From a virus (Duplodnaviria > Caudoviricetes): a stretch of 60,954 bases of DNA. The translations under genes and the position numbers were made by a program. The notes beneath the pieces are model-generated. The model was given only the letters and a program-made list of their open reading frames with translations. It was not told the origin of the DNA and ran no database searches. Of the stretch, positions 1,800-60,869 are shown one piece after another (within the stretch, counting starts at the first letter, position 1; each line of letters starts with the position of its first letter). The stretch spans positions 1 to 60,954 of IMG/VR virus record IMGVR_UViG_3300030708_003161; one strand, written 5' to 3'.

Positions 1800-3395
1800 A
1801 TGGGAGTACAATTCGGTGGGCCTAAAATAGTTAAGGCCCTTAGTTTTAAAAAAGAAGCCAAAGATGGCCTTATTAAAGGTATTAAAAAGTTATCAAATGC
1901 CGTATCAGTAACACTGGGTGCATCTGGTAGAACAGTAGTTTTAGAAGATGACTTTGGCAATCCTCATGTAACAAAAGACGGTGTTACAGTAGCAAATTAT
2001 GTAAACCTAGAAGATCCACTAGAAAATCTAGGTGCTACTATGTTGAAGCAAGCCGCAAAACAAACAGCAACAAAAGCAGGCGACGGTACAACAACATCCA
2101 CAGTGCTAGCTGAAAACATAATGAAAAGTTACTTTAATTTAAAAGGAGAAGACTTTTCGTTTAGAGATATTAAAAGCGGTATAGATAAGTTTGTAAAAAA
2201 AGTCGTAGAGTTTTTAGATAAAAAAGCATCACCGGTAGATGAAAAGATGTTAAATCACGTATCTACCATTTCTTGTAACAATGACAAAGAGCTTGGAAAC
2301 TTTATTGCGGATGCGTTTAAATTAGCAGGTGAAAATGGTGTAGTAACAATGGAAACATCACCAACAAATGAAACCTATATAGATTCAGTAAACGGTACAC
2401 ATATAAAGTCAATAAGTAAAAGTATACACTTTTATACTAATAGAGAAAAAGAAGTGTCGGAGCTTGAGAAGCCGTTAATATTCCTATGTGCTTCTGATAT
2501 AGATAATATCCGACGTATTCAAACAATATTAGAGTTCGCGATTAAGTCCAACCAGTCGTTGTTACTCATTGCTCCTTGCGACCAGCAAATCATTTCAGCA
2601 TTAGCTATGAATTTCGTAAAGGGCAATATACGTTGCAATGTTATCGATCCTCCTTCTTTCGGACTTAAAAGAAAGGATATACTGGATGACATTGCCCTTT
2701 TAACGGGTGCAACTGTTATAGATGAAAATCTAGGCGACTCACTAGATAATATTACATCTGATGTGCTCGGTAATGCATCAAAGGCTATAATTGATACAGA
2801 TGGTACAACTATAGCTATAGATGAGATTCCAGAAGGAGTCAAAGAAAGAGTTGAGTATCTTCAAAAACAATTAGATGAAGAAGAACACCATATAATGAGG
2901 CCGCATTTAGAATATAGGTTATCTATATTAAATGGCGGTGTTTCAATGGTTTATGTTGGCGGAGATACTGAAGTGGAAGTATCAGAAAAAAAAGATAGAG
3001 TTGACGATGCAATTCATGCTGTTAGAGCTGCAAAGAAAGAAGGTATACTACCGGGAGGTGGTATAGCACTGGTAGCAGCAGCGAGTATGGATTGGGATTT
3101 AACACTCAATCAAGGTGAATTAAAAGGTGTTGATATAATGAAAGAAGCACTTTTATCACCATATAATACAATACTAAGCAATGCAGGATTAAATCCTGAA
3201 GATTTTAAAGGTATATCATTTAAAAAAGGTGTTGACGTAATAGACGGCAGCATAAAAGATATGATAAAAGCCGGTATAGTCGATCCACTGCTTGTAACTA
3301 AATCAGCGCTGTTAAATGCTGTATCAGTTGCAACTACTATACTTTCAACCGATTGTGTAATTTCAAATGTTAGAGATTATGAAAGCGATAGGTAA
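1800..3395 (+). CDS. groEL: Phage chaperonin GroEL (Cpn60)
   Basis: VTKDGVTVA, AGDGTTT, KDRVDDAIHA, GILPGGG and GIVDP motifs; 531 aa; no GGM tail. Confidence 0.97.
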   Translation: MGVQFGGPKIVKALSFKKEAKDGLIKGIKKLSNAVSVTLGASGRTVVLEDDFGNPHVTKDGVTVANYVNLEDPLENLGATMLKQAAKQTATKAGDGTTTSTVLAENIMKSYFNLKGEDFSFRDIKSGIDKFVKKVVEFLDKKASPVDEKMLNHVSTISCNNDKELGNFIADAFKLAGENGVVTMETSPTNETYIDSVNGTHIKSISKSIHFYTNREKEVSELEKPLIFLCASDIDNIRRIQTILEFAIKSNQSLLLIAPCDQQIISALAMNFVKGNIRCNVIDPPSFGLKRKDILDDIALLTGATVIDENLGDSLDNITSDVLGNASKAIIDTDGTTIAIDEIPEGVKERVEYLQKQLDEEEHHIMRPHLEYRLSILNGGVSMVYVGGDTEVEVSEKKDRVDDAIHAVRAAKKEGILPGGGIALVAAASMDWDLTLNQGELKGVDIMKEALLSPYNTILSNAGLNPEDFKGISFKKGVDVIDGSIKDMIKAGIVDPLLVTKSALLNAVSVATTILSTDCVISNVRDYESDR

Positions 3396-3639: not shown

Positions 3640-4088
3640 TGGATCGCTCAGATTTTATACAAAGAGGAGAAATTAAAGTTGATTTTTTAAAATACTACAG
3701 ATTAGTTTCCAGATGGGCATGTAAACAATACGATTTAAACATTGCTGATCTGGAATTGCTATTTTACCTCGATCCTATTAAATATTTTACAATAGACGAT
3801 TTTAAAAGTGGAACCTTGTATTACAGTTGGGATAAAACTAGATTTTACAGATTGCAAAGAAATGATTGGATTAAAAAAATTCATAAAGGTAACGGTAGAC
3901 TAGGAGATCATAACAAATACACTGTTTCAGCAAAGGGGAAAAGATTAATAGCTAGAGTATACAGAATACTAATAGATAAAGAAAGTTTGCCTGAATCATC
4001 GCGAAGAAACAGAATAATGAAAAGAGAAACATATATAGATAAAGTCTATTCGCAAGCAATAAGTAAATTTAACAAAAAAAATTTATAA
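3639..4088 (+). CDS. Conserved phage protein, probable winged-helix DNA-binding protein
   Basis: LNIADLELLFYL ... KYTVSAKGKRL resembles a MarR-type wHTH. Confidence 0.6.
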   Translation: MDRSDFIQRGEIKVDFLKYYRLVSRWACKQYDLNIADLELLFYLDPIKYFTIDDFKSGTLYYSWDKTRFYRLQRNDWIKKIHKGNGRLGDHNKYTVSAKGKRLIARVYRILIDKESLPESSRRNRIMKRETYIDKVYSQAISKFNKKNL

Positions 4089-5347: not shown

Positions 5348-7786
5348 ATGTCGATTAAATTTAAATCAAGCATTGACTCCGAAGGAAGAATAGTGCAGTC
5401 TAAGCATAGGGCAATAAAACATACCGACACTGTTCAGACTTTAGAAGTTAAAGTTGTAACTAAAACTGCTGCACACCCTCACTATGATCCAAGTAATACT
5501 AATGCTTTAGGCTATACTATAGATGGGGTTGAAGGTGCTTACCTTGAATTAACCCCTGGTATTACATATAGATTTGATCAATCTGATAGTTCTAATGCTA
5601 CTCACCCTTTAAGATTTGCAACAGCTAAAGATGCAGCGGGAAGCACAGCATATACAGGAAGTGAAGTAACTACAAATGGATCACCTGGAAGTTCAGGCGC
5701 ATACACACAAATTATTCCAACTACAACAACACCACCTATATTACATTATTATTGTTCTTCACATGGTAATATGGGTAGCTATGCTAAATTTGGTACCGGT
5801 ACAGTAGGGGATACATATTCTATAAATGCTACACAAGATGGTAATAATGTAGATTTAAATTTAGATGCTGCAAGTGGTACAGATTCAACTGTACAATTAA
5901 CAGCTGGTACAAATATAAGTCTTACAAGAAATGATGCTCAGCAGGTTACAATAGAATCAACTGCTTCTGGTGATTCTTATGATTTAAACGCAACACAAGA
6001 TGGTTCAAATGTAGATATAAATTTAACATCTGGATCTGGTAGTGATAACTCTGTAGTTCAATTAACTGCAGGTACAGGAATAACCCTAACTAGAAATAGT
6101 GCAGCTGAAGTTACTGTTGCATCTTCTAGTACAGGTAGTGGTGGCCAAGTAACTACACAAAAAAATATATCAGGAGATGGTACTACAGAAGCTACCGATT
6201 CATCAAGAAGAGATTTTACAATAACCTCTGCTCCTGTTAGTAAAAATAATTTACAAATATACATAGACGGTGTTTACCAATCAAAAAATGATTTTTCTGT
6301 AAGTGGAACAACTGTAACACTAGATGCCGCTCCTGTAACAGGGGCTGTAGTAGAAATAATACATTTTATTGTAGTGAATGCTAATATATTTTTACAAACA
6401 CATACTGCAACATCTGGACAAACAAGTTTTAATGCAGGAGGTAATATATCATCTGCAAATGATACACAAGTTTATATAGATGGTGTTTATCAAAGTAAAA
6501 ATAATTATTCTGCTTCAGGAAGCAATGTGGTTTTGAATACTGCACCTGCAACGGGTGCTGTTGTTGAAATAGTTAATATAAGAGCTTCTGCTGCTGGTAA
6601 TGATGTAACCTCTGTAAACGGTTTAACTGGAGCAGTAACACTAGAAACAGGTACTGATTGGCAAACTGGAAATAAAGCATCTAATTTTACTGCAGCTGCC
6701 GGTAAAGGATATTTTGTAAATACATCATCTAATGAAGTAACCGTTACATTACCATCTGGTAGTGTAGGAGATGAAATACGGTTTACGGATTATAGTTCTT
6801 CATTTAATACTAATAAAATTAATTTTACTCAAAGCTCTGGAGAAAAAATAATGGGAGCAATTCATCCTGCTAAATGTACAGTTCAAAATTCTTTAATAGA
6901 ATTAATATACCAAGATGCAACTAAAGGCTGGTTTGGAACTAATGTTGTATCAGTTCCACCAGGTGACGGTCATTATCCAACCGCTATTAGTCTTAGAAGT
7001 GGAGGTTATACTACATCACAAAGATCAAGTACTCATAACCCTAGTTTTATAGGTTCATACGTAAGATCAGGTGTGTATATAACTCCGGATGGAACAAAGT
7101 TTTTTCATGTGCATGAATATAGTAATAATATTACATATGAAGCAACCATGAGCACCGCTTTTGACTTAACAACTTTAGCTTCTTCAGATAATTTTGATCC
7201 TCCTAATTCATATGCAGGAGATATGAGTTTTAATGGAGACGGCACAAAATTATTTATATTATCTCAAAATTCTAATCAGTTGACTGAATATACTTTATCA
7301 ACAGCTTATGATTTAAGTACAAGAGGTACAGCTACATCAACCACTGTTCATAGCGGTACACAAATCGTGTATGGGTTTAAGTTTGTAAATCAAGGAAATA
7401 CTCTTTTTGGGCAAACTTATAGTGGTAATACAAATATAACTTTATATAAATGGAATGTTTCTACAGCATATGATAGTACTGTTATAGCTAATGCACCTGA
7501 TCAAACACTTAGCCTTACGGCTTCTACAATAGGAGCGTCTTCGGTTAATAACTATGGAGGAGACTGGTCAGAAGACGGAACTCAATTTATACATGGAGGA
7601 AGTGCCGGTGGGAATTATGATTTATTTACAATTAATTTTGCAACTGCTTATGATCTTAGTAGTACTAAAACTTATAATGCTGTAGGTCATCCTGGTAGAG
7701 TAGGCGCAGTAAGAGTATTAGATGGAGGAACAAGATTTGTTTATGGAGATGAAACAGATCAATCTTTTCATATGTATAACGTATAA
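5348..7786 (+). CDS. Multidomain tail fibre/spike (cupredoxin-like domain, duplicated modules, C-terminal beta-propeller-like region)
   Basis: HPLRF...YYCSSHGNMG; 2x NATQDG-x-NVD..VQLTAGT; 2x YIDGVYQSKN; several STAYDL-like blades. Confidence 0.8.
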   Translation: MSIKFKSSIDSEGRIVQSKHRAIKHTDTVQTLEVKVVTKTAAHPHYDPSNTNALGYTIDGVEGAYLELTPGITYRFDQSDSSNATHPLRFATAKDAAGSTAYTGSEVTTNGSPGSSGAYTQIIPTTTTPPILHYYCSSHGNMGSYAKFGTGTVGDTYSINATQDGNNVDLNLDAASGTDSTVQLTAGTNISLTRNDAQQVTIESTASGDSYDLNATQDGSNVDINLTSGSGSDNSVVQLTAGTGITLTRNSAAEVTVASSSTGSGGQVTTQKNISGDGTTEATDSSRRDFTITSAPVSKNNLQIYIDGVYQSKNDFSVSGTTVTLDAAPVTGAVVEIIHFIVVNANIFLQTHTATSGQTSFNAGGNISSANDTQVYIDGVYQSKNNYSASGSNVVLNTAPATGAVVEIVNIRASAAGNDVTSVNGLTGAVTLETGTDWQTGNKASNFTAAAGKGYFVNTSSNEVTVTLPSGSVGDEIRFTDYSSSFNTNKINFTQSSGEKIMGAIHPAKCTVQNSLIELIYQDATKGWFGTNVVSVPPGDGHYPTAISLRSGGYTTSQRSSTHNPSFIGSYVRSGVYITPDGTKFFHVHEYSNNITYEATMSTAFDLTTLASSDNFDPPNSYAGDMSFNGDGTKLFILSQNSNQLTEYTLSTAYDLSTRGTATSTTVHSGTQIVYGFKFVNQGNTLFGQTYSGNTNITLYKWNVSTAYDSTVIANAPDQTLSLTASTIGASSVNNYGGDWSEDGTQFIHGGSAGGNYDLFTINFATAYDLSSTKTYNAVGHPGRVGAVRVLDGGTRFVYGDETDQSFHMYNV

Positions 7787-14173: not shown

Positions 14174-14769
14174 TGAAATCACTTTACAATTATATTATAT
14201 ATACTGACAGCAGATACGACAATAAAAAAAACATTGATGGTAAAGAGCTTATACTTAATTCAGAATTATCTGAAAGAGATTATAAGTTTGTTAATAGAAT
14301 AGGTACAGTTAAAAGTGTACCTATAAATTATAAAACTAAAATACAACCAGGTGATAAAGTAATTGTTCATCATAATGTTTTTAGAAGATGGATTGATGTT
14401 AAGGGTAAAGAAAAAAATTCATCATCATATATTGATGAAAATATTTATTCTGTAAGTCCAGATCAGGTATATGCGTACAAAAATAATGGCAAATGGAAAT
14501 GTCCTGATAGATATTGTTTTGTTAAGCCATTACCGCAAGATTTTAAATGGAGTGTTTTAAAAGAAAAAGAATTGGTTGGAGAGCTTATATATAGTAGTAA
14601 GCTTTTAAGCTCGTTAAACGTGTCCGTAGGCGATATAGTGGGCTTTACACCAGGTTCTGAATATGAATTTAATATTGAAAACCAAAAATTATACAGAATT
14701 TTATTAAATGATATAACAATAAACTATGGACGTAAAGAAAACAAGAGAAAGACTACTCAAAGCTGCTGA
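14173..14769 (+). CDS. GroES-like protein (tandem GroES-fold domains)
   Basis: Two copies of a G.V.. / (I/V)..GD.V pattern (IQPGDKVIVHH, VSVGDIVGF). Confidence 0.65.
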   Translation: MKSLYNYIIYTDSRYDNKKNIDGKELILNSELSERDYKFVNRIGTVKSVPINYKTKIQPGDKVIVHHNVFRRWIDVKGKEKNSSSYIDENIYSVSPDQVYAYKNNGKWKCPDRYCFVKPLPQDFKWSVLKEKELVGELIYSSKLLSSLNVSVGDIVGFTPGSEYEFNIENQKLYRILLNDITINYGRKENKRKTTQSC

Positions 14770-37361: not shown

Positions 37362-40300
37362 ATGGAAGAATTAAATAGTATTATTGGGGAAATGATTGCT
37401 AACGGGGAGCCGCAAGAAGTAATGGATGCTGTAATTGCAGAATGGGAAAACCGAAACCCAGGTGTATTAAATAACGAATCATTAAATACAGAACCTTTAG
37501 GCACTGAACAATCTAATTTTGATGAAATAATACCTGAAGATCAAAATTGGTTTGAAAGAAATATTGGAGATAATATACCCGGTATTGAGTTTATGAGTGA
37601 TTTATATAGAGATATACAAAGGGGTATTGCTATAGGTCAAACTACAGACGAAAAAGCTAGATTATTCACAGGAGATAGTTCAGATGAAGCAATTCAAGAT
37701 TATATTAAAACCACTAAAGAAGTTGGTGAGTTAAAGCAATCTGAAGAAATGCAACAATATAATAAATTTTTGCAAGAATATAAAGATCAAGGTGACTCCG
37801 ATGCATTAGCTTGGTTTAAAGCACAGGCTAAGTCAACTTTAAAAGGTGATGGTGTTTTAATGGGTATGTTTGCAGAATCATTAGCTTCTCAGGCTTCTAC
37901 AATATTTGCATCACCTGGGCAAGCCGCAATAGTAGGAGCAGGAGCTTTTACTGGAGCAAAAGTAAGTGGAGCTATAGGTGCGGCGGCTAGCAGCTGGACA
38001 GGGCCTTTAGCAGGTGTTTTTTCTGCTTTTAGTGCCGCTGGTGGTGCAGTAGCAGGTGCAAGGTCTGCTTCTATGGGTATATTAGAAACAACCTCAACAT
38101 TTAATGATTTATTATCTGAAAAAATAAAAGAAAGAGGAGGCGATCCATTAAATGCTGAAGATATTAGAGCTGTACTTGAAGATGAAGAAGCAATGGGTGA
38201 ATTAAGAAGAAATTCATTAGCGAGAGGATTTACTATTAGTGCATTTGAAGGAGCTGCTGGATTAGTTGGAGCAGGTGTTGCTGCTAAAACTGTAGTTTCA
38301 AAAGCAGGCAAATTTGTAAGAGCTTCTAAAGTAGCCGGAGTTGAAGCCGTAGGTGGTGGTACTGGTGAATTTGCGGGTCAATTAGCAGCCGGTCAAGATA
38401 TAAATGTAGAAGAAATACTAACTGAAGCATTTACAGGTACAGGTATGGCTGCAACAAGTATTGCAGCAGGACAGTTTAATAGAAAAGGTATTGCAGAATA
38501 TAATTTAAATGGTGAGAAAGATGCAAAGCTTAGAGGTGAAATTGAAGATCTTGTAGAAAATGGTACAGATGAACAGTTTGTAAATAGTAAAGTAAAAGTT
38601 GAAAACGATAAAACTCTTCAAGATAAAATAAATAAAAGAAGAAAAAAGATTGTTAAAGAAAACAAACAAGTAGTAAAAGATAAAATTAAACCTAAAGTTG
38701 TTGAAGAAGTTGAAAAAAGAATTGATGCAAAAATTTTAAAACTACAACAACAAATAAAACAAGTTGAAAAAGAAGATGGCCCAGTTGCTGCTGCTGCTTT
38801 TAAAAAACAACTAGAAATAGAAAAAAAGAAGAAAGAAGATATTAATAAAATCATGTTTGAGCAGTTAGATCAATTAAGTGAAGAAGAAACACTTAATTTG
38901 ATGAACATGGATGACGAAGTATCTATTTATCAGTCTATATTAAATGATCCTAATTCTACTGAGTTAGCAAAACAATCTGCAAAAGAACAATTAGCTTTAT
39001 TAAAAGCAGCACAATTAGAAGTAGTAAACAATCCTGATTCTGTTGATATGGCTAAAGAAGATGGACCAGTAAGTAAAAAGAATAAAGACTTATCTGATAA
39101 AACTCAAAAGGCTTACGAAAGAAAAGGTAAAGATGCATGGGCTGAAGTTTCAGAATATCAAGCAGGTATTATAAATACTATAGCACATTCTATGTGGTCT
39201 AAAATACCAAAAGAAAAAAGAGTAGGCACTATAGAAGATTTTATATCTGGTCTTAAAAGTGATAAAGAAGGGATAAGAGGATTACTTAAAACTTATGATC
39301 CTACAACAGGTGTGCCTTTAGCTGCTTATATCCAAAATCCTATATCTGGAATAAGAGTAAGAGCTAATAGGATAATAAAAAGATATGTAAAGCAAGACAT
39401 AGAAGAAGATGTAACTAGTCAACAGTTTAAAGATTATTATACTACAGAAGAAGCTATAGATTTAGATAGAAGATATTTACACGAGAAGCTTAAATTAAAT
39501 CCTATATTAGCAGATTTAGAAAGTACAACAGAGGTAGCATATCAAAAAGCTAGAAATGAATTAGAAACAATAGGTAATGTTACACAGAAAAAACAAAGAA
39601 AAGCTTTAATAAAAGCATTTGATAAAATATTTAAAGGTAAATATGATAAAAAAATAAAAGACTTTGTAGGTAAAAATACTAAATCTGAAAAAACATTTAG
39701 TAAATTTTTAAAAGATAATTTACCTGCATTAAAATTAGCGGTGGTTGCAAATATTAATTCTCAAATGTCTAATGATAATATTATGAGTACGTGGACAAAG
39801 GTTCCTCCTACCGATCAAGATTTTTTAGATTATTATGAAGGTAAAGATATTAGCCCTGACCAACCTGCTAGTGTTAAAAGTGATAGAAAAACAAAATTAG
39901 TAGAAGCTATTAGAAGACAATTAGGTATAGACGCCCGCGCTTCCTTTAGAGAACAATTTGCTGAAGATCTACCTCAATTTCAACAAATCGATGAAGTCGA
40001 AGTATTTAATTCTAAAGATTTTTTAGATAAACTAAATTTTATTTTTACAGAACCCAGCGAGGTTATTGGTAAAGAAGCTAAAGATGTAGAAGATGCTGAG
40101 GTAGAAAACAATATTAACAAAGTTATAGAAAATCAAATTGTTCCAAATTTAAATAAAAACTTTGATAACCAAAATACTAAAAAGTTAGATCCTAATAATG
40201 AAAATGATTTGCCAGAAATTTATGAAGAATGGCAAAGCTATATTACTAAAGGTTATGTATCTCCTGCTGTATTACAAAAAATGGGACAGTTTGGAGCTAA

Positions 40301-43300
40301 GGTTGCTTATAAAGATATAAATGGTAAATTTCATCCTACTAAAACAGCTGCTAAATTAGGTAATGATAAAGCTAAGCCTAAAAAGTATTATGAAATGAAA
40401 GAGGCTGTAGAGGGAAGTGAAGAGTCTAATGGAAAACAATATTTACCGTTTGACATTGACACTAAAAACCCTGAGCTTGAAGGAAAATTTAAACCTGCAA
40501 GAGGCGGTTTATATTATGGTACTGTAGATCCCTTATATAAAAACCATTTAAAATTAGCTCAAGAAAAATATCCTAAACAAAAAATTTCTAAAAAAGGAAA
40601 ATTAAATTTATTTGGTAAAATAAATAATGTAATATCAAATAATTTAGTAAATTATCCTATATTAAAAAAATTAGTAGACGGTTATGCTTCAAGTGTACAA
40701 GACAATCAAGAAATTGTTATGCAAATGGCTGAAGATATGGCGGATGCTATCCAAAAAGGAGAAGCAAATCCGTGGGTTATGTCATTAGGATTAAAAACTG
40801 CATATAAAGGTACTGATGGATTATTAAAAACTTCATATGAATTTAAAGGATATGAGCAAGGTACCTTAGAATTTGGAGATGGTAAATTTGCAGAAAATTA
40901 TAAAGGTAACTCTAAGCGTAGAGTAAGAGAAGAACACTCCCCACCTGTTAGTTCATTTGCAGCTAAACTTTTATTAGCTACATCTATGGTAAAATCTGAA
41001 AACATGCGTCCTCTCATTCAAAAAATGTATAAGGATGCAGGGCAATATTTAATTTCTTTTAAGCATGATCAAGATTTAGAAACCGCTAAGTTAGGTGCTA
41101 GTATTGTAGAGGGAGATGTAATTGGGCAAAACTCAGGACTACATAGAATTTTACAAGTTATTCCTGCAAATAAATTAGTTTTAATTAAAGATAATATTAC
41201 TGTAGAAGAATTAAATGATAAAATTAAAGATGCAATTCAAACAAAAAAGCCTGCAGAAAGAATATTACAAGGCGTAACACAGCAATTTGAACAGGATAAT
41301 CAGCAAGATATTCCTTTATCAGATAACGAAAGAATAGAAGCATTTACTGATATACTTAGTTTAGCTTATCCTGATAAAATCATAATGACTAACAGAGAAG
41401 ATGTTATTAAATATCTAACAGCTAATTTTCCTAGAAAATTTCCAAATAGAAAAGCAGCAGAAAAAGTTATAGATAATGCAAGAGGATTTAGAGATAGTAA
41501 TGTTATATTTCTTAATCCCGGAAAAGCTACTTTAGAAACGGTAATGCATGAATTTACTCATGAATGGGCTTATATAGTTAAAGATAGAGATCCTGAATTA
41601 TTCAACGCTATATATGAAAAAATACAAGGGCACCCTAGATTTAAAGAGGCTGTTGAAAGAATGAAAGAACCTGGAGTTGGTGGTTATAGCGAAATGAGTC
41701 CTGATTCATTTGAATATAAAAATGAAGTAATAGCTTATATATTAGGAAAAGAAGGCTCATCTCTTTATGAATTATTTGCAGGTGATGCTGAAGCTAAATC
41801 TTTAATAGATAAGTTCTTTGATTATGTAAGAGAAGCTTTAGGTTTTGATCCTACAGTTAAAAACTTTTCAGATTTAACAGTTGAAGAAGTAATTAAATTA
41901 ACTGTTAAAGATATTGTAGAGGGTAATCCTGCTGCTAATTTTGATAAATTAAAAAATAAATCTGAAGGTAAAAGTTGGTTTGCTAAAACAGAAGCAAATC
42001 AAAGTCCTAGTCAAAAAGCTAAATTAGATCCTATATTAAGAGCTTTTAATAAAATTAAATTATCATATAGAGAAAATAAAGATTTAGCACAAGCTATTGT
42101 TGACGCTTATCCAGAAGTAGAAAGCAGCATGGAGTTTGGTGATTTTGTTAAATTAGTATTACAAAATACTAAAGAAACTGAAATAGGTGAATCTAAAACG
42201 CTTCTTATAGCAAAAAATGATGTATTAAAAGCAAATAAAATAGCTGAAGAAAGTACTAAAAAGTTAGAACAAGATAAAATTAAAGAAGAAGATAAATCTA
42301 CTCTTCAAAATAAATTTAGAAGAATGATTTATAAAGCCGCAGCGGAAGGGGCAAAAGCATCTAGATGGTTTATACCACCAAGTGCTGAAGACTTTAAAGG
42401 TTTGCTATACACGTTTTTACCAAAAGGCAAAGCTGGTGTTGAAGCCCGTAAATTTTTAGAAGAACATTTATTAAAACCTTATTCTGATGGTATTGCTGCC
42501 CTTGATACTGAAATATTAAATAAAAGTAAAGCTTGGGAAAAAATGTCTAAAGGATATAACCTTAATGAAAAAGTAGAGGGTACTCCATATACAATAGGCG
42601 ATGCTATAAAAATTTATAATGCTGTTAAGCGTGGTGATGATGTTACTATTGCAAAACAAAAACACATGGATGCTTTAATTCATAAAGTTGAAAGTGATCA
42701 AAGTCTTTTAGATTTAGCTGAAGCTATTGAAGAAAGTTTTCCTATTGATATAAAAGATGGGTGGCAAAATAAAACTTTAGCTAAAGAAGTATTTGATGCT
42801 ATTAATAATGGTGCTAGAGAAAGAGCTTTAAAAACTTTTTCTGAAAATGTAGATGCAATATTTAATGATACCACAATGGATCTTATTGGTGATCAATTTG
42901 GAAACAACTTTAAACAAGCATTAAAAAACACCCTTAGAAGGATGAAATCTGGTCGTAATAGGGTAAGTACAGACGCACAGTCTAATGTGTGGTTAAACTG
43001 GATTAATAGAGCCGTAGGGACGACTATGTTCTTTAATAGCAGATCAGCTTTGCTGCAAACTATTTCATCTCTTAATTTTATAGGATTAAAAGATAACAAT
43101 ATATTTCAAGCAGCAGCTGCATATGCAAATAGAAAACAATTTCAAGAAGATTATAAAAAATTATGGAATAGTGACTATTTAAAAAATAGAAGAGACGGTG
43201 CAAAGTTTGATGTACTAGCAGATGAAATTGCAGAAGGAGATCCACAAGGAATAAATAAATTATTAAAAAACGGATTTCTACCAACTAGATATGCAGATAG

Positions 43301-44546
43301 TTTTGCTATTGCTTTAGGAGGTGCGGCGTTTTATAGAAATAGAGTAAATGCTTTAGTTAAGCAAGGGATGGATGTAAAGCAAGCTGAACAACAAGCTATG
43401 AATGATTGGAGAAAAGAAGCTGAAAATTCACAGCAATCTGCAGATCCTTCTAAAATATCTGAAATACAAGCATCGTCACTTGGTAGAATTATATATGCTT
43501 TTGCTAATACACCTTTCCAGTATGCTAGAATTGTTAAAAGAAGATTACAAGATATAACATCTGGTAGGTCTGCAGCTGAAGGTAGAGTACAAAGTGATCT
43601 TGGTACTATATTATATTATGGGGCTGTGCAAGCTGTAATGTTTAATGCATTACAATCAGGGTTAGCTGCTCTTGCTTTTGGAGATGATGATGATGAAGAA
43701 ATTAAAAAACTAAAAGATAAAAAATATTTAATGTCTATTGAAAGAGGTTTAACTTCTTTTGCTAAATCTTTAGGTAATCCAGGTGCGGTTTCTGCTACAC
43801 TTTATTCTTTAATGAAAGAAGGGTATTTGCAACAAACAGGACAAAAAAGACCTGATCCAAATGCTTTTGCAATAACAGCTACAAGCATATCACCACCTAT
43901 AAATTCTAAACTTAGAGATTTAGCTTCTGCTTATAGATCATTTAATAAAATAGATGAGGATGATTTGTTAACACCTTCTTTAGACAATGAAGCTTTAACT
44001 ATGTCTGGTGAAATCGCTTCTTTTGCAGGTGTACCTTTAGATAGAGTAATTCGTAAAGCTAGACACTTAGCAGCTATTAAAAATGAAGAATTAGAAGCTT
44101 GGCAAAAATTATGGTTAGTATTAGGATGGAATGAATGGGATTTAGGTGTTGATACTAAAGTTAGTAAAAATTTATTTCAAGAGGCGGAATTTGATAGTGA
44201 TGATTTTAAAGAAGCAGAGTTTGAAGAATCAACATTTAAAAAATTAAAACCCGGTGTTGCAGGTGTAGCAAATAATGATGGAACTATAGAATTAGATCCT
44301 AATTTATCACCTGAAGAAAAAAGAAAAACTATACAACACGAGAAGCAACATTTGCTTGATATGAAAAATAAAAAAATAAAGTTAAACTACGACGATAACT
44401 TTGTTTATTATAAAAATAAAAAATATAAAAGAGCAAATGGTAATATAGTATATAACGGGAAATCCTATATAGAGGGTCACCCAGACTTGCCTTGGGAAAA
44501 GAGGGCATATAAAGCAGAGAAAACTAGAAAGTTTTTGTATGCATAA
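37362..44546 (+). CDS. Giant polyvalent virion/ejection protein (G/A-rich membrane segment, sigma-like segment, two HExxH motifs)
   Basis: 2394 aa; YDPTTGVPLAAY; MHEFTH; C-terminal QHEKQH...LPWEKRAY. Confidence 0.78.
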   Translation: MEELNSIIGEMIANGEPQEVMDAVIAEWENRNPGVLNNESLNTEPLGTEQSNFDEIIPEDQNWFERNIGDNIPGIEFMSDLYRDIQRGIAIGQTTDEKARLFTGDSSDEAIQDYIKTTKEVGELKQSEEMQQYNKFLQEYKDQGDSDALAWFKAQAKSTLKGDGVLMGMFAESLASQASTIFASPGQAAIVGAGAFTGAKVSGAIGAAASSWTGPLAGVFSAFSAAGGAVAGARSASMGILETTSTFNDLLSEKIKERGGDPLNAEDIRAVLEDEEAMGELRRNSLARGFTISAFEGAAGLVGAGVAAKTVVSKAGKFVRASKVAGVEAVGGGTGEFAGQLAAGQDINVEEILTEAFTGTGMAATSIAAGQFNRKGIAEYNLNGEKDAKLRGEIEDLVENGTDEQFVNSKVKVENDKTLQDKINKRRKKIVKENKQVVKDKIKPKVVEEVEKRIDAKILKLQQQIKQVEKEDGPVAAAAFKKQLEIEKKKKEDINKIMFEQLDQLSEEETLNLMNMDDEVSIYQSILNDPNSTELAKQSAKEQLALLKAAQLEVVNNPDSVDMAKEDGPVSKKNKDLSDKTQKAYERKGKDAWAEVSEYQAGIINTIAHSMWSKIPKEKRVGTIEDFISGLKSDKEGIRGLLKTYDPTTGVPLAAYIQNPISGIRVRANRIIKRYVKQDIEEDVTSQQFKDYYTTEEAIDLDRRYLHEKLKLNPILADLESTTEVAYQKARNELETIGNVTQKKQRKALIKAFDKIFKGKYDKKIKDFVGKNTKSEKTFSKFLKDNLPALKLAVVANINSQMSNDNIMSTWTKVPPTDQDFLDYYEGKDISPDQPASVKSDRKTKLVEAIRRQLGIDARASFREQFAEDLPQFQQIDEVEVFNSKDFLDKLNFIFTEPSEVIGKEAKDVEDAEVENNINKVIENQIVPNLNKNFDNQNTKKLDPNNENDLPEIYEEWQSYITKGYVSPAVLQKMGQFGAKVAYKDINGKFHPTKTAAKLGNDKAKPKKYYEMKEAVEGSEESNGKQYLPFDIDTKNPELEGKFKPARGGLYYGTVDPLYKNHLKLAQEKYPKQKISKKGKLNLFGKINNVISNNLVNYPILKKLVDGYASSVQDNQEIVMQMAEDMADAIQKGEANPWVMSLGLKTAYKGTDGLLKTSYEFKGYEQGTLEFGDGKFAENYKGNSKRRVREEHSPPVSSFAAKLLLATSMVKSENMRPLIQKMYKDAGQYLISFKHDQDLETAKLGASIVEGDVIGQNSGLHRILQVIPANKLVLIKDNITVEELNDKIKDAIQTKKPAERILQGVTQQFEQDNQQDIPLSDNERIEAFTDILSLAYPDKIIMTNREDVIKYLTANFPRKFPNRKAAEKVIDNARGFRDSNVIFLNPGKATLETVMHEFTHEWAYIVKDRDPELFNAIYEKIQGHPRFKEAVERMKEPGVGGYSEMSPDSFEYKNEVIAYILGKEGSSLYELFAGDAEAKSLIDKFFDYVREALGFDPTVKNFSDLTVEEVIKLTVKDIVEGNPAANFDKLKNKSEGKSWFAKTEANQSPSQKAKLDPILRAFNKIKLSYRENKDLAQAIVDAYPEVESSMEFGDFVKLVLQNTKETEIGESKTLLIAKNDVLKANKIAEESTKKLEQDKIKEEDKSTLQNKFRRMIYKAAAEGAKASRWFIPPSAEDFKGLLYTFLPKGKAGVEARKFLEEHLLKPYSDGIAALDTEILNKSKAWEKMSKGYNLNEKVEGTPYTIGDAIKIYNAVKRGDDVTIAKQKHMDALIHKVESDQSLLDLAEAIEESFPIDIKDGWQNKTLAKEVFDAINNGARERALKTFSENVDAIFNDTTMDLIGDQFGNNFKQALKNTLRRMKSGRNRVSTDAQSNVWLNWINRAVGTTMFFNSRSALLQTISSLNFIGLKDNNIFQAAAAYANRKQFQEDYKKLWNSDYLKNRRDGAKFDVLADEIAEGDPQGINKLLKNGFLPTRYADSFAIALGGAAFYRNRVNALVKQGMDVKQAEQQAMNDWRKEAENSQQSADPSKISEIQASSLGRIIYAFANTPFQYARIVKRRLQDITSGRSAAEGRVQSDLGTILYYGAVQAVMFNALQSGLAALAFGDDDDEEIKKLKDKKYLMSIERGLTSFAKSLGNPGAVSATLYSLMKEGYLQQTGQKRPDPNAFAITATSISPPINSKLRDLASAYRSFNKIDEDDLLTPSLDNEALTMSGEIASFAGVPLDRVIRKARHLAAIKNEELEAWQKLWLVLGWNEWDLGVDTKVSKNLFQEAEFDSDDFKEAEFEESTFKKLKPGVAGVANNDGTIELDPNLSPEEKRKTIQHEKQHLLDMKNKKIKLNYDDNFVYYKNKKYKRANGNIVYNGKSYIEGHPDLPWEKRAYKAEKTRKFLYA

Positions 44547-58526: not shown

Positions 58527-58546
58527 TCTATTTAATTTAAAGTTAG

Positions 58547-58619
58547 AGCGAAAAGTGGGAATCGAACCCACAACCTTTAGATTGGAAATCTAATGCTCTG
58601 CCAATTGAGCTATTTTCGC
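58547..58619 (-). tRNA. tRNA-Gly(TCC)
   Basis: GCGAAAA/TTTTCGC acceptor stem, U73, TTAGA-TT-TCC-AA-TCTAA anticodon arm, GTGGG-TTCGATT-CCCAC T arm; CCA not encoded. Confidence 0.95.
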
Positions 58620-58623
58620 ATAA

Positions 58624-58744
58624 GGAGGCGGATGAAACTAGGAATGATATGCAATACACTTCCGTAATGTCTCTCATGTCAACAAGACACACATGCACAA
58701 CTGTTTATATCATCTTTCTACCTTTCGGCTTCCTGACTACCTCC
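58624..58744 (-). ncRNA. Candidate structured ncRNA
   Basis: GGAGGT/GCCTCC closing stem, GCC-GAAA-GGT hairpin, GATGATAT/ATATCATT and TGTCT/AGACA helices; lies between two tRNAs. Confidence 0.55.
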
Positions 58745-58809
58745 AATAGCAGTTGTATGTTCCTGAATGAGATTTAACCATTTGAACAAGAAACTATCAA
58801 TCTGCTTTT

Positions 58810-58883
58810 GTGCGCGGGGTGGACTCGAACCACCGACCTCGAGTTTATGAGACTCGCGAGCTGACCATCTGCTCTACCGCGCA
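58810..58883 (-). tRNA. tRNA with CAT anticodon (Met, atypical initiator-like)
   Basis: TGCGCGG/CCGCGCA acceptor stem, GAGC/GCTC D stem, CGAGT-CT-CAT-AA-ACTCG anticodon arm, GGTGG-TTCGAGT-CCACC T arm. Confidence 0.92.
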
Positions 58884-59671: not shown

Positions 59672-59908
59672 TTAACCACAAATTTCTCTTGTTCCATCAT
59701 TATTCATATCATATCTATGCTGATTATCTAAATCAAACTTTATAAGTTCACCATTTGTTTCCATCCACTGACAATTTGTCATATTATGGCCTTTATCATC
59801 TAAAAATTGTTCAGCTAAAACCGAACTTGTAAACCATTCTATTAATTCATATTGAAAAACTTTACCTTTTTCTGAATCAAGCACTGTTATATATTTTTTA
59901 TCTTTCAT
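59672..59908 (-). CDS. Hypothetical early protein
   Basis: 78-aa ORF coupled to the upstream gene. Confidence 0.65.
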   Translation of the reverse strand: MKDKKYITVLDSEKGKVFQYELIEWFTSSVLAEQFLDDKGHNMTNCQWMETNGELIKFDLDNQHRYDMNNDGTREICG

Positions 59909-60335: not shown

Positions 60336-60479
60336 TTAATTATTTTCTATATAATCAATTATGTCATCAGTTATTTCAATATCATATTTATTAAGTATGA
60401 TTTGACACATTTCAACTGTATTCAAATGTTCATAGTTTTGAATTACATAATCTATTATATTTACAATACTATCATTCAT
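60336..60479 (-). CDS. Small hypothetical protein
   Basis: Start moved to MNDSIV because the track GTG start lies within the tRNA-like element. Confidence 0.45.
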   Translation of the reverse strand: MNDSIVNIIDYVIQNYEHLNTVEMCQIILNKYDIEITDDIIDYIENN

Positions 60480-60493
60480 AATTTTTAATTTAG

Positions 60494-60558
60494 TGGACGT
60501 GGTGAGATTCGAACTCACGTTACAATTATAATATAATTGTGCTTAACCTTTCACGCCC
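60494..60558 (-). ncRNA. tRNA-like RNA resembling a minimal tmRNA tRNA-like domain (Ala identity)
   Basis: GGGCGTG/CACGTCC-A acceptor stem with G3.U70, stemless D loop AAAGGTTAAGC, hairpin ACAATTAT-ATT-ATAATTGT, AAC linker, GTGAG-TTCGAAT-CTCAC T arm. Confidence 0.7.
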
Positions 60559-60869
60559 TAAGTTCCTGAGTATGTCCAAGGATTATTTAAACAATACTCA
60601 TCTATTTCTTTTTCATCTTGATATATTTCATCTAGATTTTCAATTGTTTCATTTATTCTTTTAACACTGTAGTTAATATCATCTTTATCTTGAAGATATA
60701 TTTTTTCTACACCCATTGGAGTTTTAATGTAACAAACTTTTGTACCATCAAATTCTTTTTCTAATTCATATACGAATTTATCATTTAAATGTTTTTCATA
60801 TCCATTAAAAGAACCTGACATAAAGTCATTTATTATTAATCTATCAAAATCATTTCTTTTTACTATCAT
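60558..60869 (-). CDS. Hypothetical early protein
   Basis: 103-aa ORF; its TAG stop overlaps G1 of the tRNA-like RNA. Confidence 0.6.
   Translation of the reverse strand: MIVKRNDFDRLIINDFMSGSFNGYEKHLNDKFVYELEKEFDGTKVCYIKTPMGVEKIYLQDKDDINYSVKRINETIENLDEIYQDEKEIDEYCLNNPWTYSGT

Follow-up and report, generated by a model that had tools for sequence, protein, structure and literature searches.

A 65-nucleotide tag-less tmRNA-like gene in an uncultured phage and its relatives in marine phage contigs

Introduction

Reduced forms of transfer-messenger RNA (tmRNA) have been described from a small number of sources, and statements on them here and below follow excerpts of the cited records and papers. 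The mycobacteriophage DS6A carries a tmRNA listed as "TLD only", consisting of the tRNA-like domain (TLD; tmRNA Website entry; PMC4131195, Table 2 and text; PMC11915505). A molecule similar to the DS6A RNA reportedly inhibits tmRNA, perhaps through titration of SmpB (PMC4131195), and a TLD-only tmRNA is reported to inhibit the endogenous tmRNA in Escherichia coli (PMC11915505). Among organelles, tmRNAs of approximately 65 bp that lack a coding sequence (CDS) are described for the plastids of Mallomonadaceae (PMC11915505), and a reduced mitochondrial tmRNA, represented by Rfam family RF02544, for jakobids (PMC3590771). tmRNA genes as such are given for about 2.3% of phage genomes (PMC9004378), and within these sources the prior record of tmRNAs confined to the tRNA-like domain comprises one cultured phage, DS6A, and a few organelles. 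Here we analyze a whole IMG/VR virus record of 60,954 nucleotides (IMGVR_UViG_3300030708_003161, hereafter the window), in which an original prediction, made from the letters alone, had placed a 65-nt "mini-tmRNA" with alanine identity and no tag reading frame at positions 60494-60558 of the minus strand.

The analysis supports this identity and places the element in a large, previously unannotated family of marine phage sequences. Since a TLD-only phage tmRNA, that of DS6A, is already on record in the sources above, the novelty is less than the original prediction had assumed, and the element is a fresh example of a known, barely sampled kind.

Results

A tRNA-like domain with a single helix

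The letters and layout predicted for the minus strand at 60494-60558 were recovered, and the minimum free energy fold of these 65 nt is the predicted structure. The gene, which we annotate as a tag-less tmRNA-like gene (tRNA-like domain plus one helix) from its sequence, its fold and the covariance model and Rfam scores given below, begins with the 5' strand of the acceptor stem, GGGCGTG (60552-60558), and continues with a stemless equivalent of the D loop that contains GG, AAAGGTTAAGC (60541-60551). The next part is a hairpin, ACAATTAT-ATT-ATAATTGT (60522-60540), with 8 bp and a 3-nt loop, which lies at the position of tmRNA helix P2 and replaces the anticodon arm. A 3-nt linker, AAC (60519-60521), leads to the T arm, GTGAG-TTCGAAT-CTCAC (60502-60518), whose 5-bp stem with the 7-nt loop UUCGAAU is stacked directly on the acceptor stem. 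The 3' strand of the latter, CACGTCC (60495-60501), in which T70 pairs with G3, completes a stem of 7 bp that includes the G3.U70 wobble in both sequence and fold, and is followed by the discriminator A73 (60494) and then by CTAA, CCA not being encoded. The fold has a free energy of -20.1 kcal/mol, compared to -9.81 +/- 2.57 for shuffled sequences (z = -4.00), with none of 200 shuffles as good.

The hairpin at 60522-60540 was found once in a window-wide search. The idea that it might be a repeated operator or a mobile palindrome was rejected on this basis, a 14-nt partial match at 14186 lying inside a coding region. An origin as an attP (phage attachment site) fragment was also discarded, given that both acceptor strands are present and that no tyrosine integrase was found in the window.

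Applied to the whole window, both ARAGORN at default settings and Rfam at gathering thresholds reported a tRNA-Gly (58546-58619) and a tRNA-Met (58810-58883) and nothing else, and ARAGORN in tmRNA mode returned nothing on the element. The original prediction had proposed scoring with tmRNA, mitochondrial tmRNA and tRNA models. The Rfam tmRNA model RF00023 gave 35.7 bits (E 2.4e-14, cut-off 47), aligning end to end over model positions 1-374, while its scores on the two true tRNAs of the window were 15.5 and 7.1 bits. In a local search, the tRNA model RF00005 reached 31.3 bits, against a cut-off of 29, in an alignment that omits the D arm, and the mitochondrial tmRNA model RF02544 yielded no match at E<=10. 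The element is not a cloverleaf, as the D stem is missing and the hairpin closes to a 3-nt loop in the fold, and the features of a canonical tmRNA (pseudoknots, resume codon, tag frame), for which 65 nt are too short, are absent. Calls of tRNA-Asn(att) and mt-Tyr(ata), obtained from ARAGORN under relaxed and mitochondrial settings, were rejected as forced fits that are mutually inconsistent. The tag-less tmRNA-like genes of the family described below escape ARAGORN and Rfam at default thresholds.

A family of related elements in marine phage contigs

Relatives were sought by scanning IMG/VR for the 3' end of the element (T loop, CCACGTCC, A, CTA). This pattern matched 84 stretches, making 85 elements together with the window, and a recognisable 5' strand in 83 of them gave 71 unique sequences of 65-243 nt. 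Their common layout is GGGCGTG / A-AATGG(T/A)TAG / variable helix / (A)AC / GCAGG-TTCGAWT-CCTGC / CACGTCC / A / CTA, with AAATGGTTAG as the consensus of the GG loop, to which the corresponding loop of the window element is similar, and with the AAC linker of the element in 33 of the 71. A covariance model (R2) was trained on 53 relatives no longer than 110 nt, the window being excluded; it detected the window element at 54.3 bits (E 5.3e-11) as the sole match in 321,294 bases of five phage genomes. Another model, built from three 41-nt elements (R1), proved too narrow, matching only a T-arm fragment of the window element (21.3 bits) and finding nothing new across the records of 20 relatives.

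The original prediction had suggested a search for phage homologues that keep G3.U70 while the hairpin varies, and the family fits this description: 69 of the 71 unique sequences carry the 7-mer GGGCGTG, and the helix at the P2 position begins with 47 distinct 5' strands, as judged by their first 5 nt, while reaching at least 5 bp in 52 of 71. The closing helix averages 5.59 bp compared to 3.42 in shuffled sequences, and since the observed value is reached by 18.7% of shuffles in what is a crude test, the support for the helix per sequence is modest. In another 65-nt form, at locus L125, the hairpin consists of 6 bp and a loop of 4 nt. The T stem is GCAGG/CCTGC in 62 of 71 family sequences, and the GTGAG/CTCAC of the window differs from it at three pairs, with both sides changed in each.

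The same 65 nt were present, identical and in the same context, in two metagenome contigs; in one of these (L371), the element has 0 changes in 65 positions, compared to 8 in approximately 116 flanking columns. The original argument that intact stems speak against a decayed tRNA is supported by this difference, as well as by stems that are intact and changes that are compensated. An exact 26-nt search of IMG/VR gave no match. In blastn searches against 50,697 cultured phage records, the region produced ordinary tRNA matches only, and a family member produced T-arm matches only, with no further member of the family.

Kinship with tmRNA

The homologues are not full tRNAs of which the element might be a deletion remnant, an outcome that the original prediction had named as fatal to it. 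They are tmRNA-like, over the whole size range, with the same acceptor, GG loop, helix and T arm, and a D stem or anticodon loop was found in none of them. The best Rfam family for L125 is tmRNA, at 31.7 bits. For ten further relatives, tmRNA is the top Rfam family at eight loci (33.5-42.6 bits), the other two having no match at E<=0.01. An 81-nt element at L227 (4417-4497), with the acceptor GGGGGTG/CACCTCC, scores 65.9 bits with RF00023 and so lies above the cut-off of 47. The longest relative, at L237, is a 243-nt tmRNA (111.2 bits) with the tag ANKNQFALAA, and its acceptor stem, A73 and CTA trailer are as in the window element. This shows that the acceptor stem belongs to a tmRNA; it does not make L237 the direct ancestor of the element. 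ARAGORN called a tmRNA with a tag in 2 of 84 relatives, the second call (tag ERTEVYYIC) being dubious. The full tmRNAs of two Bacteroidetes metagenome-assembled genomes (MAGs) have the GG loops ACCGGTTTTGAC and ACTGGTTTTGAC, near the AAATGGTTAGAC of the family, and one of the two is also without an encoded CCA.

The identification as a tag-less mini-tmRNA is supported by homology, by way of the relatives: the element itself stays below the cut-off of the Rfam tmRNA model, but it belongs to the family by model R2, and the scores of its relatives with the tmRNA model extend up to that of the tagged L237. Taken together, the comparisons support the interpretation that the element is a tmRNA stripped to its tRNA-like domain (acceptor stem, GG loop and T arm), with a short stand-in for P2.

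Conservation of the alanine-identity acceptor stem

The original prediction also depended on the conservation of G3.U70. GGGCGTG, and with it G3.U70, occurs in all of the 71 unique sequences except two that have GGACGTG. As the 3'-end pattern had fixed U70 beforehand, two additional checks were performed. A pattern free of the acceptor returned 16 matches, all 16 of which carry GGGCGTG/CACGTCC and A73. For the second check, loci were fetched with an unrelated pattern, and R2 found 12 family elements in them; position 3:70 is G.U in 10 of these 12, across four acceptor sequences (GGGCGTG, GGGAGTG, GGGGGTG and GGGGGTA). G3.U70 was therefore retained in differently selected loci as well, and the acceptor stem including G3.U70, along with A73 apart from an exception at L202, which carries U73, is strongly conserved in the family. 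Locus L222 holds two tmRNA-like copies 1.5 kb apart, at 2376-2466 and 3957-4043, both on the minus strand, one of which is canonical.

In a search aimed at the host, the 3' end was looked for in 185,579 species genomes. Most of the 57 matches were tRNA-Ala of unrelated phyla, the set also including reduced forms from small MAG contigs, and none of them was a tmRNA of Flavobacteriia. At 7 of 16 cellular loci checked, ARAGORN reported tRNA-Ala genes with the same acceptor stem and A73. Since the 3' end is common to tRNA-Ala, alanine identity fits, and an origin from tRNA-Ala is retained as a minor rival.

Genomic setting and distribution

The window is 94% complete, has approximately 31% G+C, and encodes a GroEL-like chaperonin, terminase, portal, ribonucleotide reductase, primase-helicase, ligase and a sigma-like protein. 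The chaperonin gene lies at 1800-3395 on the plus strand (phrog_5725, E 1.3e-131), and 37362-44546, also on the plus strand, is an open reading frame (ORF) of 2394 aa. The nearest terminases (87 records) are those of phages of Flavobacterium, Cellulophaga and Tenacibaculum, with 46% identity for the isolates listed. The host of the window phage is probably a member of the Bacteroidota, and the marine phages that bear the family probably infect Flavobacteriia.

The element is located between two ORFs of the same strand. The upstream ORF (60558-60869, minus strand, 103 aa), which has homologues in relatives, ends with a TAG stop whose final base is G1 of the element, a detail absent from the original prediction. 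The downstream ORF (60336-60482, minus strand, 48 aa) starts with an ATG at 60482, 14 nt past A73. Such an overlap with the upstream stop codon is present in 3 of 71 family members, namely the window, L230 and L259, and 60 of 71 have the start of an ORF no more than 120 nt downstream. The trailer after A73 is CTAA in 50 and CTAT in 16 of the 71 family sequences, and the tRNA-Gly of the window is likewise trailed by CTAAC.

Between this tRNA-Gly and the tRNA-Met lies a 190-nt non-coding spacer (58620-58809, minus strand), which has no Rfam match and whose single-sequence fold (z -1.23) is uninformative. Motifs similar to its 3' end (..tcatccgcctcctta) directly precede tRNA and tmRNA-like genes in relatives, and a 15-mer of the spacer, TTACGGAAGTGTATT, recurs inside longer tmRNA-like elements at L262 and L265 and near a third, at L151.

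Of 76 loci bearing the family, 61 share at least one protein with the window. The ligase (37 loci) and a 78-aa ORF at 59672-59908 (28 loci) are the most frequent, so that the family occupies one early region of a broad phage lineage. Within this region, the element is an accessory gene. None of three related contigs, identified through flanking proteins, has the element at the same junction; in one relative (G003), the homologue of the upstream ORF ends without the element, and another small ORF precedes the homologue of the downstream ORF. In a close relative, the segment missing, 60481-60558, is exactly the element and its trailer, a difference of presence or absence. RNA-library contigs of a relative cover the flanking genes and none covers 60502-60540; being contigs only, they have no bearing on transcription either way.

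Shorter tRNA-like elements in the same phages

The three contigs related through flanking proteins carry, at other places, elements of 41-43 nt in which a GG loop of 9-11 nt and a T arm lie between a 7-nt stem strand and its partner, with N73 and CTAA after them. Their stems are different and compensated and are without G3.U70; taken on their own, these elements would have spoken against the mini-tmRNA idea.

More broadly, a second family of 41-45 nt has a 7-bp stem, a loop A[TC]GGT.., a T arm, N73 and CTAA, with neither the helix nor G3.U70. Examples are found at L003 (454-494 and 2263-2305), at L006 (476-516) and at many loci among L108-L227, and this kind accounts for 38 of the first 120 IMG/VR matches of one pattern. 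The stems covary widely (TGACATA/TATGTCA, AGTCACA/TGTGACT, GAGATAA/CTATCTC and others), and the T arm is often GTGAG-TTCGATT-CTCAC, as in the window element. These elements share loci with tmRNA-like genes at L125, L151, L162, L175, L206 and L222. Conserved leader modules of approximately 70 nt precede many 41-nt and tmRNA-like elements, for example at L129 (5061-5125) and L003 (387-453). The modules fall into at least three types, none with an Rfam match, and resemble a hairpin with a pseudoknot. One type has a loop ACTTGTT that pairs with a downstream AACAAGT, and a variant AATGAGT still pairs, only through G.U.

Shortened tRNA-like elements also occur beside tRNA genes in other phage groups, on contigs of 17-40 kb (L108, L112, L134, L152, L173, L178, L216, L226 and others). 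These elements have the stem AGCAAGC/ACTTGCT, a spacer of 12-29 nt with GG, and the T arm CAGGG-TTCGACT-CCCTG. A 2-kb segment (5700-7700) of the 95.5-kb viral contig L118 contains three tRNA genes and at least five short tRNA-like elements with differing stems.

Discussion

G3:U70 and A73 direct alanyl-tRNA synthetase (AlaRS), even on minihelices, and a 12-bp acceptor/T-arm helix is a known minimal substrate of this enzyme. Such a helix is also enough for RNase P, the CCA-adding enzyme and EF-Tu, and SmpB binds the elbow of the tmRNA TLD. Based on the structure and conservation presented above, we consider it reasonably likely that this phage gene specifies a message-less tmRNA that competes with the host tmRNA for SmpB and stalled ribosomes, with loss of tagging. 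The RNA would be transcribed with early genes on the minus strand, cut by host RNase P at G1, within the upstream stop codon, trimmed at the 3' end past A73, and completed by the host CCA-adding enzyme. Host AlaRS would then charge it via G3.U70 and A73, and the charged RNA would bind host SmpB and EF-Tu and enter ribosomes stalled at the ends of mRNAs. Having no resume codon and no tag frame, it would be unable to add a degradation tag. As a net effect it would compete with the host tmRNA for SmpB and stalled ribosomes, and tagging trans-translation would be reduced, being either blocked or replaced by a tag-less transfer of the peptide; of the outcomes considered, we judge competition accompanied by loss of tagging to be the most probable. 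Alanylation, SmpB binding and an effect on trans-translation are predictions from sequence and structure. The conservation of predicted chargeability argues for entry of the RNA into ribosomes, over a role limited to soaking up SmpB.

Several observations weigh against this interpretation. The element scores below the cut-off of the tmRNA model (35.7 versus 47) yet above that of the tRNA model (31.3 versus 29), which leaves room for an origin from tRNA-Ala, and the mitochondrial tmRNA model finds nothing in it. The 14-kb locus L237, which holds the tagged tmRNA, is hit by none of the window ORFs. Among the relatives, L125 has A3-U70 and is thus without G3.U70, and the copy at L222 2376-2466 (minus strand) has A1-U72, G3-C70 and U73 and has therefore lost alanine identity. 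Model R2 finds the element in 0 of the 20 records with the nearest terminases, including 0 of the 4 that are at least 90% complete, and in the close relative that differs by its absence, a metatranscriptome-library contig has 10 other letters in the place between 60480 and 60559. A SmpB gene was not found in the window, so that the action of the element would rely wholly on host factors. Finally, if titration of SmpB needs no charging, as cited in PMC4131195 for the E. coli experiment, titration alone leaves the conservation of G3.U70 unexplained.

A distinctly less probable explanation, although one that we take seriously, is that the RNA is a tag-less rescue factor, which together with SmpB would free ribosomes from non-stop phage mRNAs and raise translation capacity, leaving products without a mark for proteolysis, the benefit lying in rescue and not in inhibition. 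Such mRNAs could come from host RNase attack or from the RNase P cut in the upstream stop codon, and the overlap of G1 with the upstream TAG, seen also in L230 and L259, would suit the latter, except that just 3 of 71 family members have it. The conservation of G3.U70 and A73 implies that charging matters, and CDS-less organellar tmRNAs persist and are thought to act with SmpB (PMC11915505, PMC4131195, as excerpted). Against this stand the inhibition reported for a similar molecule (cited in the same excerpts) and the lack of any known exit route from the ribosome for a peptidyl-TLD that has no resume codon. We regard as improbable the idea that the acceptor/T-arm helix serves only as a site for RNase P and 3' processing, cutting an early polycistronic transcript to free a downstream mRNA with a short leader, with alanine identity as a leftover. 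The position between two same-strand ORFs, with a stop codon overlapping G1 and the next ATG 14 nt past A73, would fit, as would the downstream ORF starts within 120 nt in 60 of 71 members, the CTAA trailer common to the element and the true tRNA-Gly, and the 41-nt relatives, without helix and G3.U70, in similar places. RNase P, however, has no need of G3.U70 or of a particular acceptor sequence. Even so, all 16 matches of the acceptor-free pattern have one and the same stem, and the G.U is kept across four stem variants; covariation also keeps helix P2, for which a bare processing site has no use, and the same gene junction lacks the element in close relatives.

Both remaining explanations would make the element a tRNA derivative or a relic, and we give them little credence. 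That it derives from tRNA-Ala, unrelated to tmRNA, and acts as a decoy for defence nucleases or toxins that hit tRNA acceptor ends, or as an alanine donor outside translation, is very unlikely. The identity of acceptor stem and A73 with cellular tRNA-Ala genes at 7 of 16 loci and the score above the tRNA cut-off speak for it; it is opposed by relatives that all lack a D stem and anticodon loop (the hairpin of L125 having 6 bp and a 4-nt loop), by the higher scores of the tmRNA model over the tRNA model in relatives, and by a size series that extends to a tagged tmRNA. To our knowledge, an anticodon loop is also required by most known anticodon nucleases. Least credible of all is that the element is a functionless, decaying remnant or a real tRNA without a D arm and with anticodon AUU. 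The gene is accessory and lies in a variable region, and a "tRNA-Asn(att)" results when the Rfam tRNA alignment or ARAGORN with -ps80 imposes a 7-nt loop AUAUUAU, but the ARAGORN alternatives disagree on register and anticodon, and the thermodynamic fold leaves a 3-nt loop. Decay is at odds with intact stems, with compensated changes, and with 0 of 65 changes in the element versus 8 of approximately 116 in its flanks, and conservation across the whole family speaks against either version.

A broader reading of all the elements, which we offer as speculation and think doubtful as a whole, is that these phages carry a graded toolkit of tRNA-like RNAs directed against host ribosome rescue. One part of it would be message-less tmRNAs of many sizes that accept alanine; on entering stalled ribosomes, these would either add an untemplated alanine or free the peptide untagged. 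The 41-45-nt forms without helix and alanine identity might be pure SmpB sponges or processing signals, with a conserved pseudoknot-like leader before many of the RNAs. As the window element combines the acceptor stem of the alanine-accepting RNAs with the loop and T arm of the 41-45-nt forms, it would then be a recombinant link between the two.

A conserved marine family, with 71 unique sequences among 85 elements, sizes from 243 down to 65 nt and a near-invariant alanine-identity acceptor stem, points to a recurrent strategy of phages in which trans-translation is interfered with or replaced, and not to a single case. The family also represents a natural deletion series for the minimum of tmRNA needed in SmpB binding, charging and ribosome entry.

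Comparison with known systems

With tRNA-Ala, the element has GGGCGUG/CACGUCC and A73 in common, identical to those of tRNA-Ala genes of several bacteria, and it differs in having neither D stem nor anticodon loop and in having tmRNA-like relatives. It resembles the standard one-piece tmRNA of RF00023 in its G3.U70 and A73 acceptor, stemless GG loop, helix P2, short linker and T arm, and differs from it in the absence of pseudoknots, resume codon and tag frame and in a score below the cut-off. The CDS-less organellar tmRNAs, as excerpted, are alike in their size of approximately 65 nt and in retaining the tRNA-like domain alone, the message part being gone. Those are, however, cellular or organellar genes that use imported SmpB, and the reduced mitochondrial model does not match the element, which is an accessory gene of a virus whose host presumably possesses a full tmRNA itself. 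The closest described counterpart is the DS6A RNA, which, in the excerpts consulted, is likewise encoded by a phage, contains little beyond the tRNA-like domain, has no tag frame, and has inhibition of the host tmRNA, perhaps through titration of SmpB, as the function proposed for it. DS6A infects Actinobacteria, in contrast with the probable Bacteroidota host of the window phage, and the likeness is one of description rather than of compared sequences. No TLD-only tmRNA of marine or Flavobacteriia phages was found described in the literature, where a listing in a supplement or tmRNA database is possible. Unlike the DS6A RNA, the window element is a member of a large family that forms a size series from 65 to 243 nt and is represented in uncultured marine contigs only.
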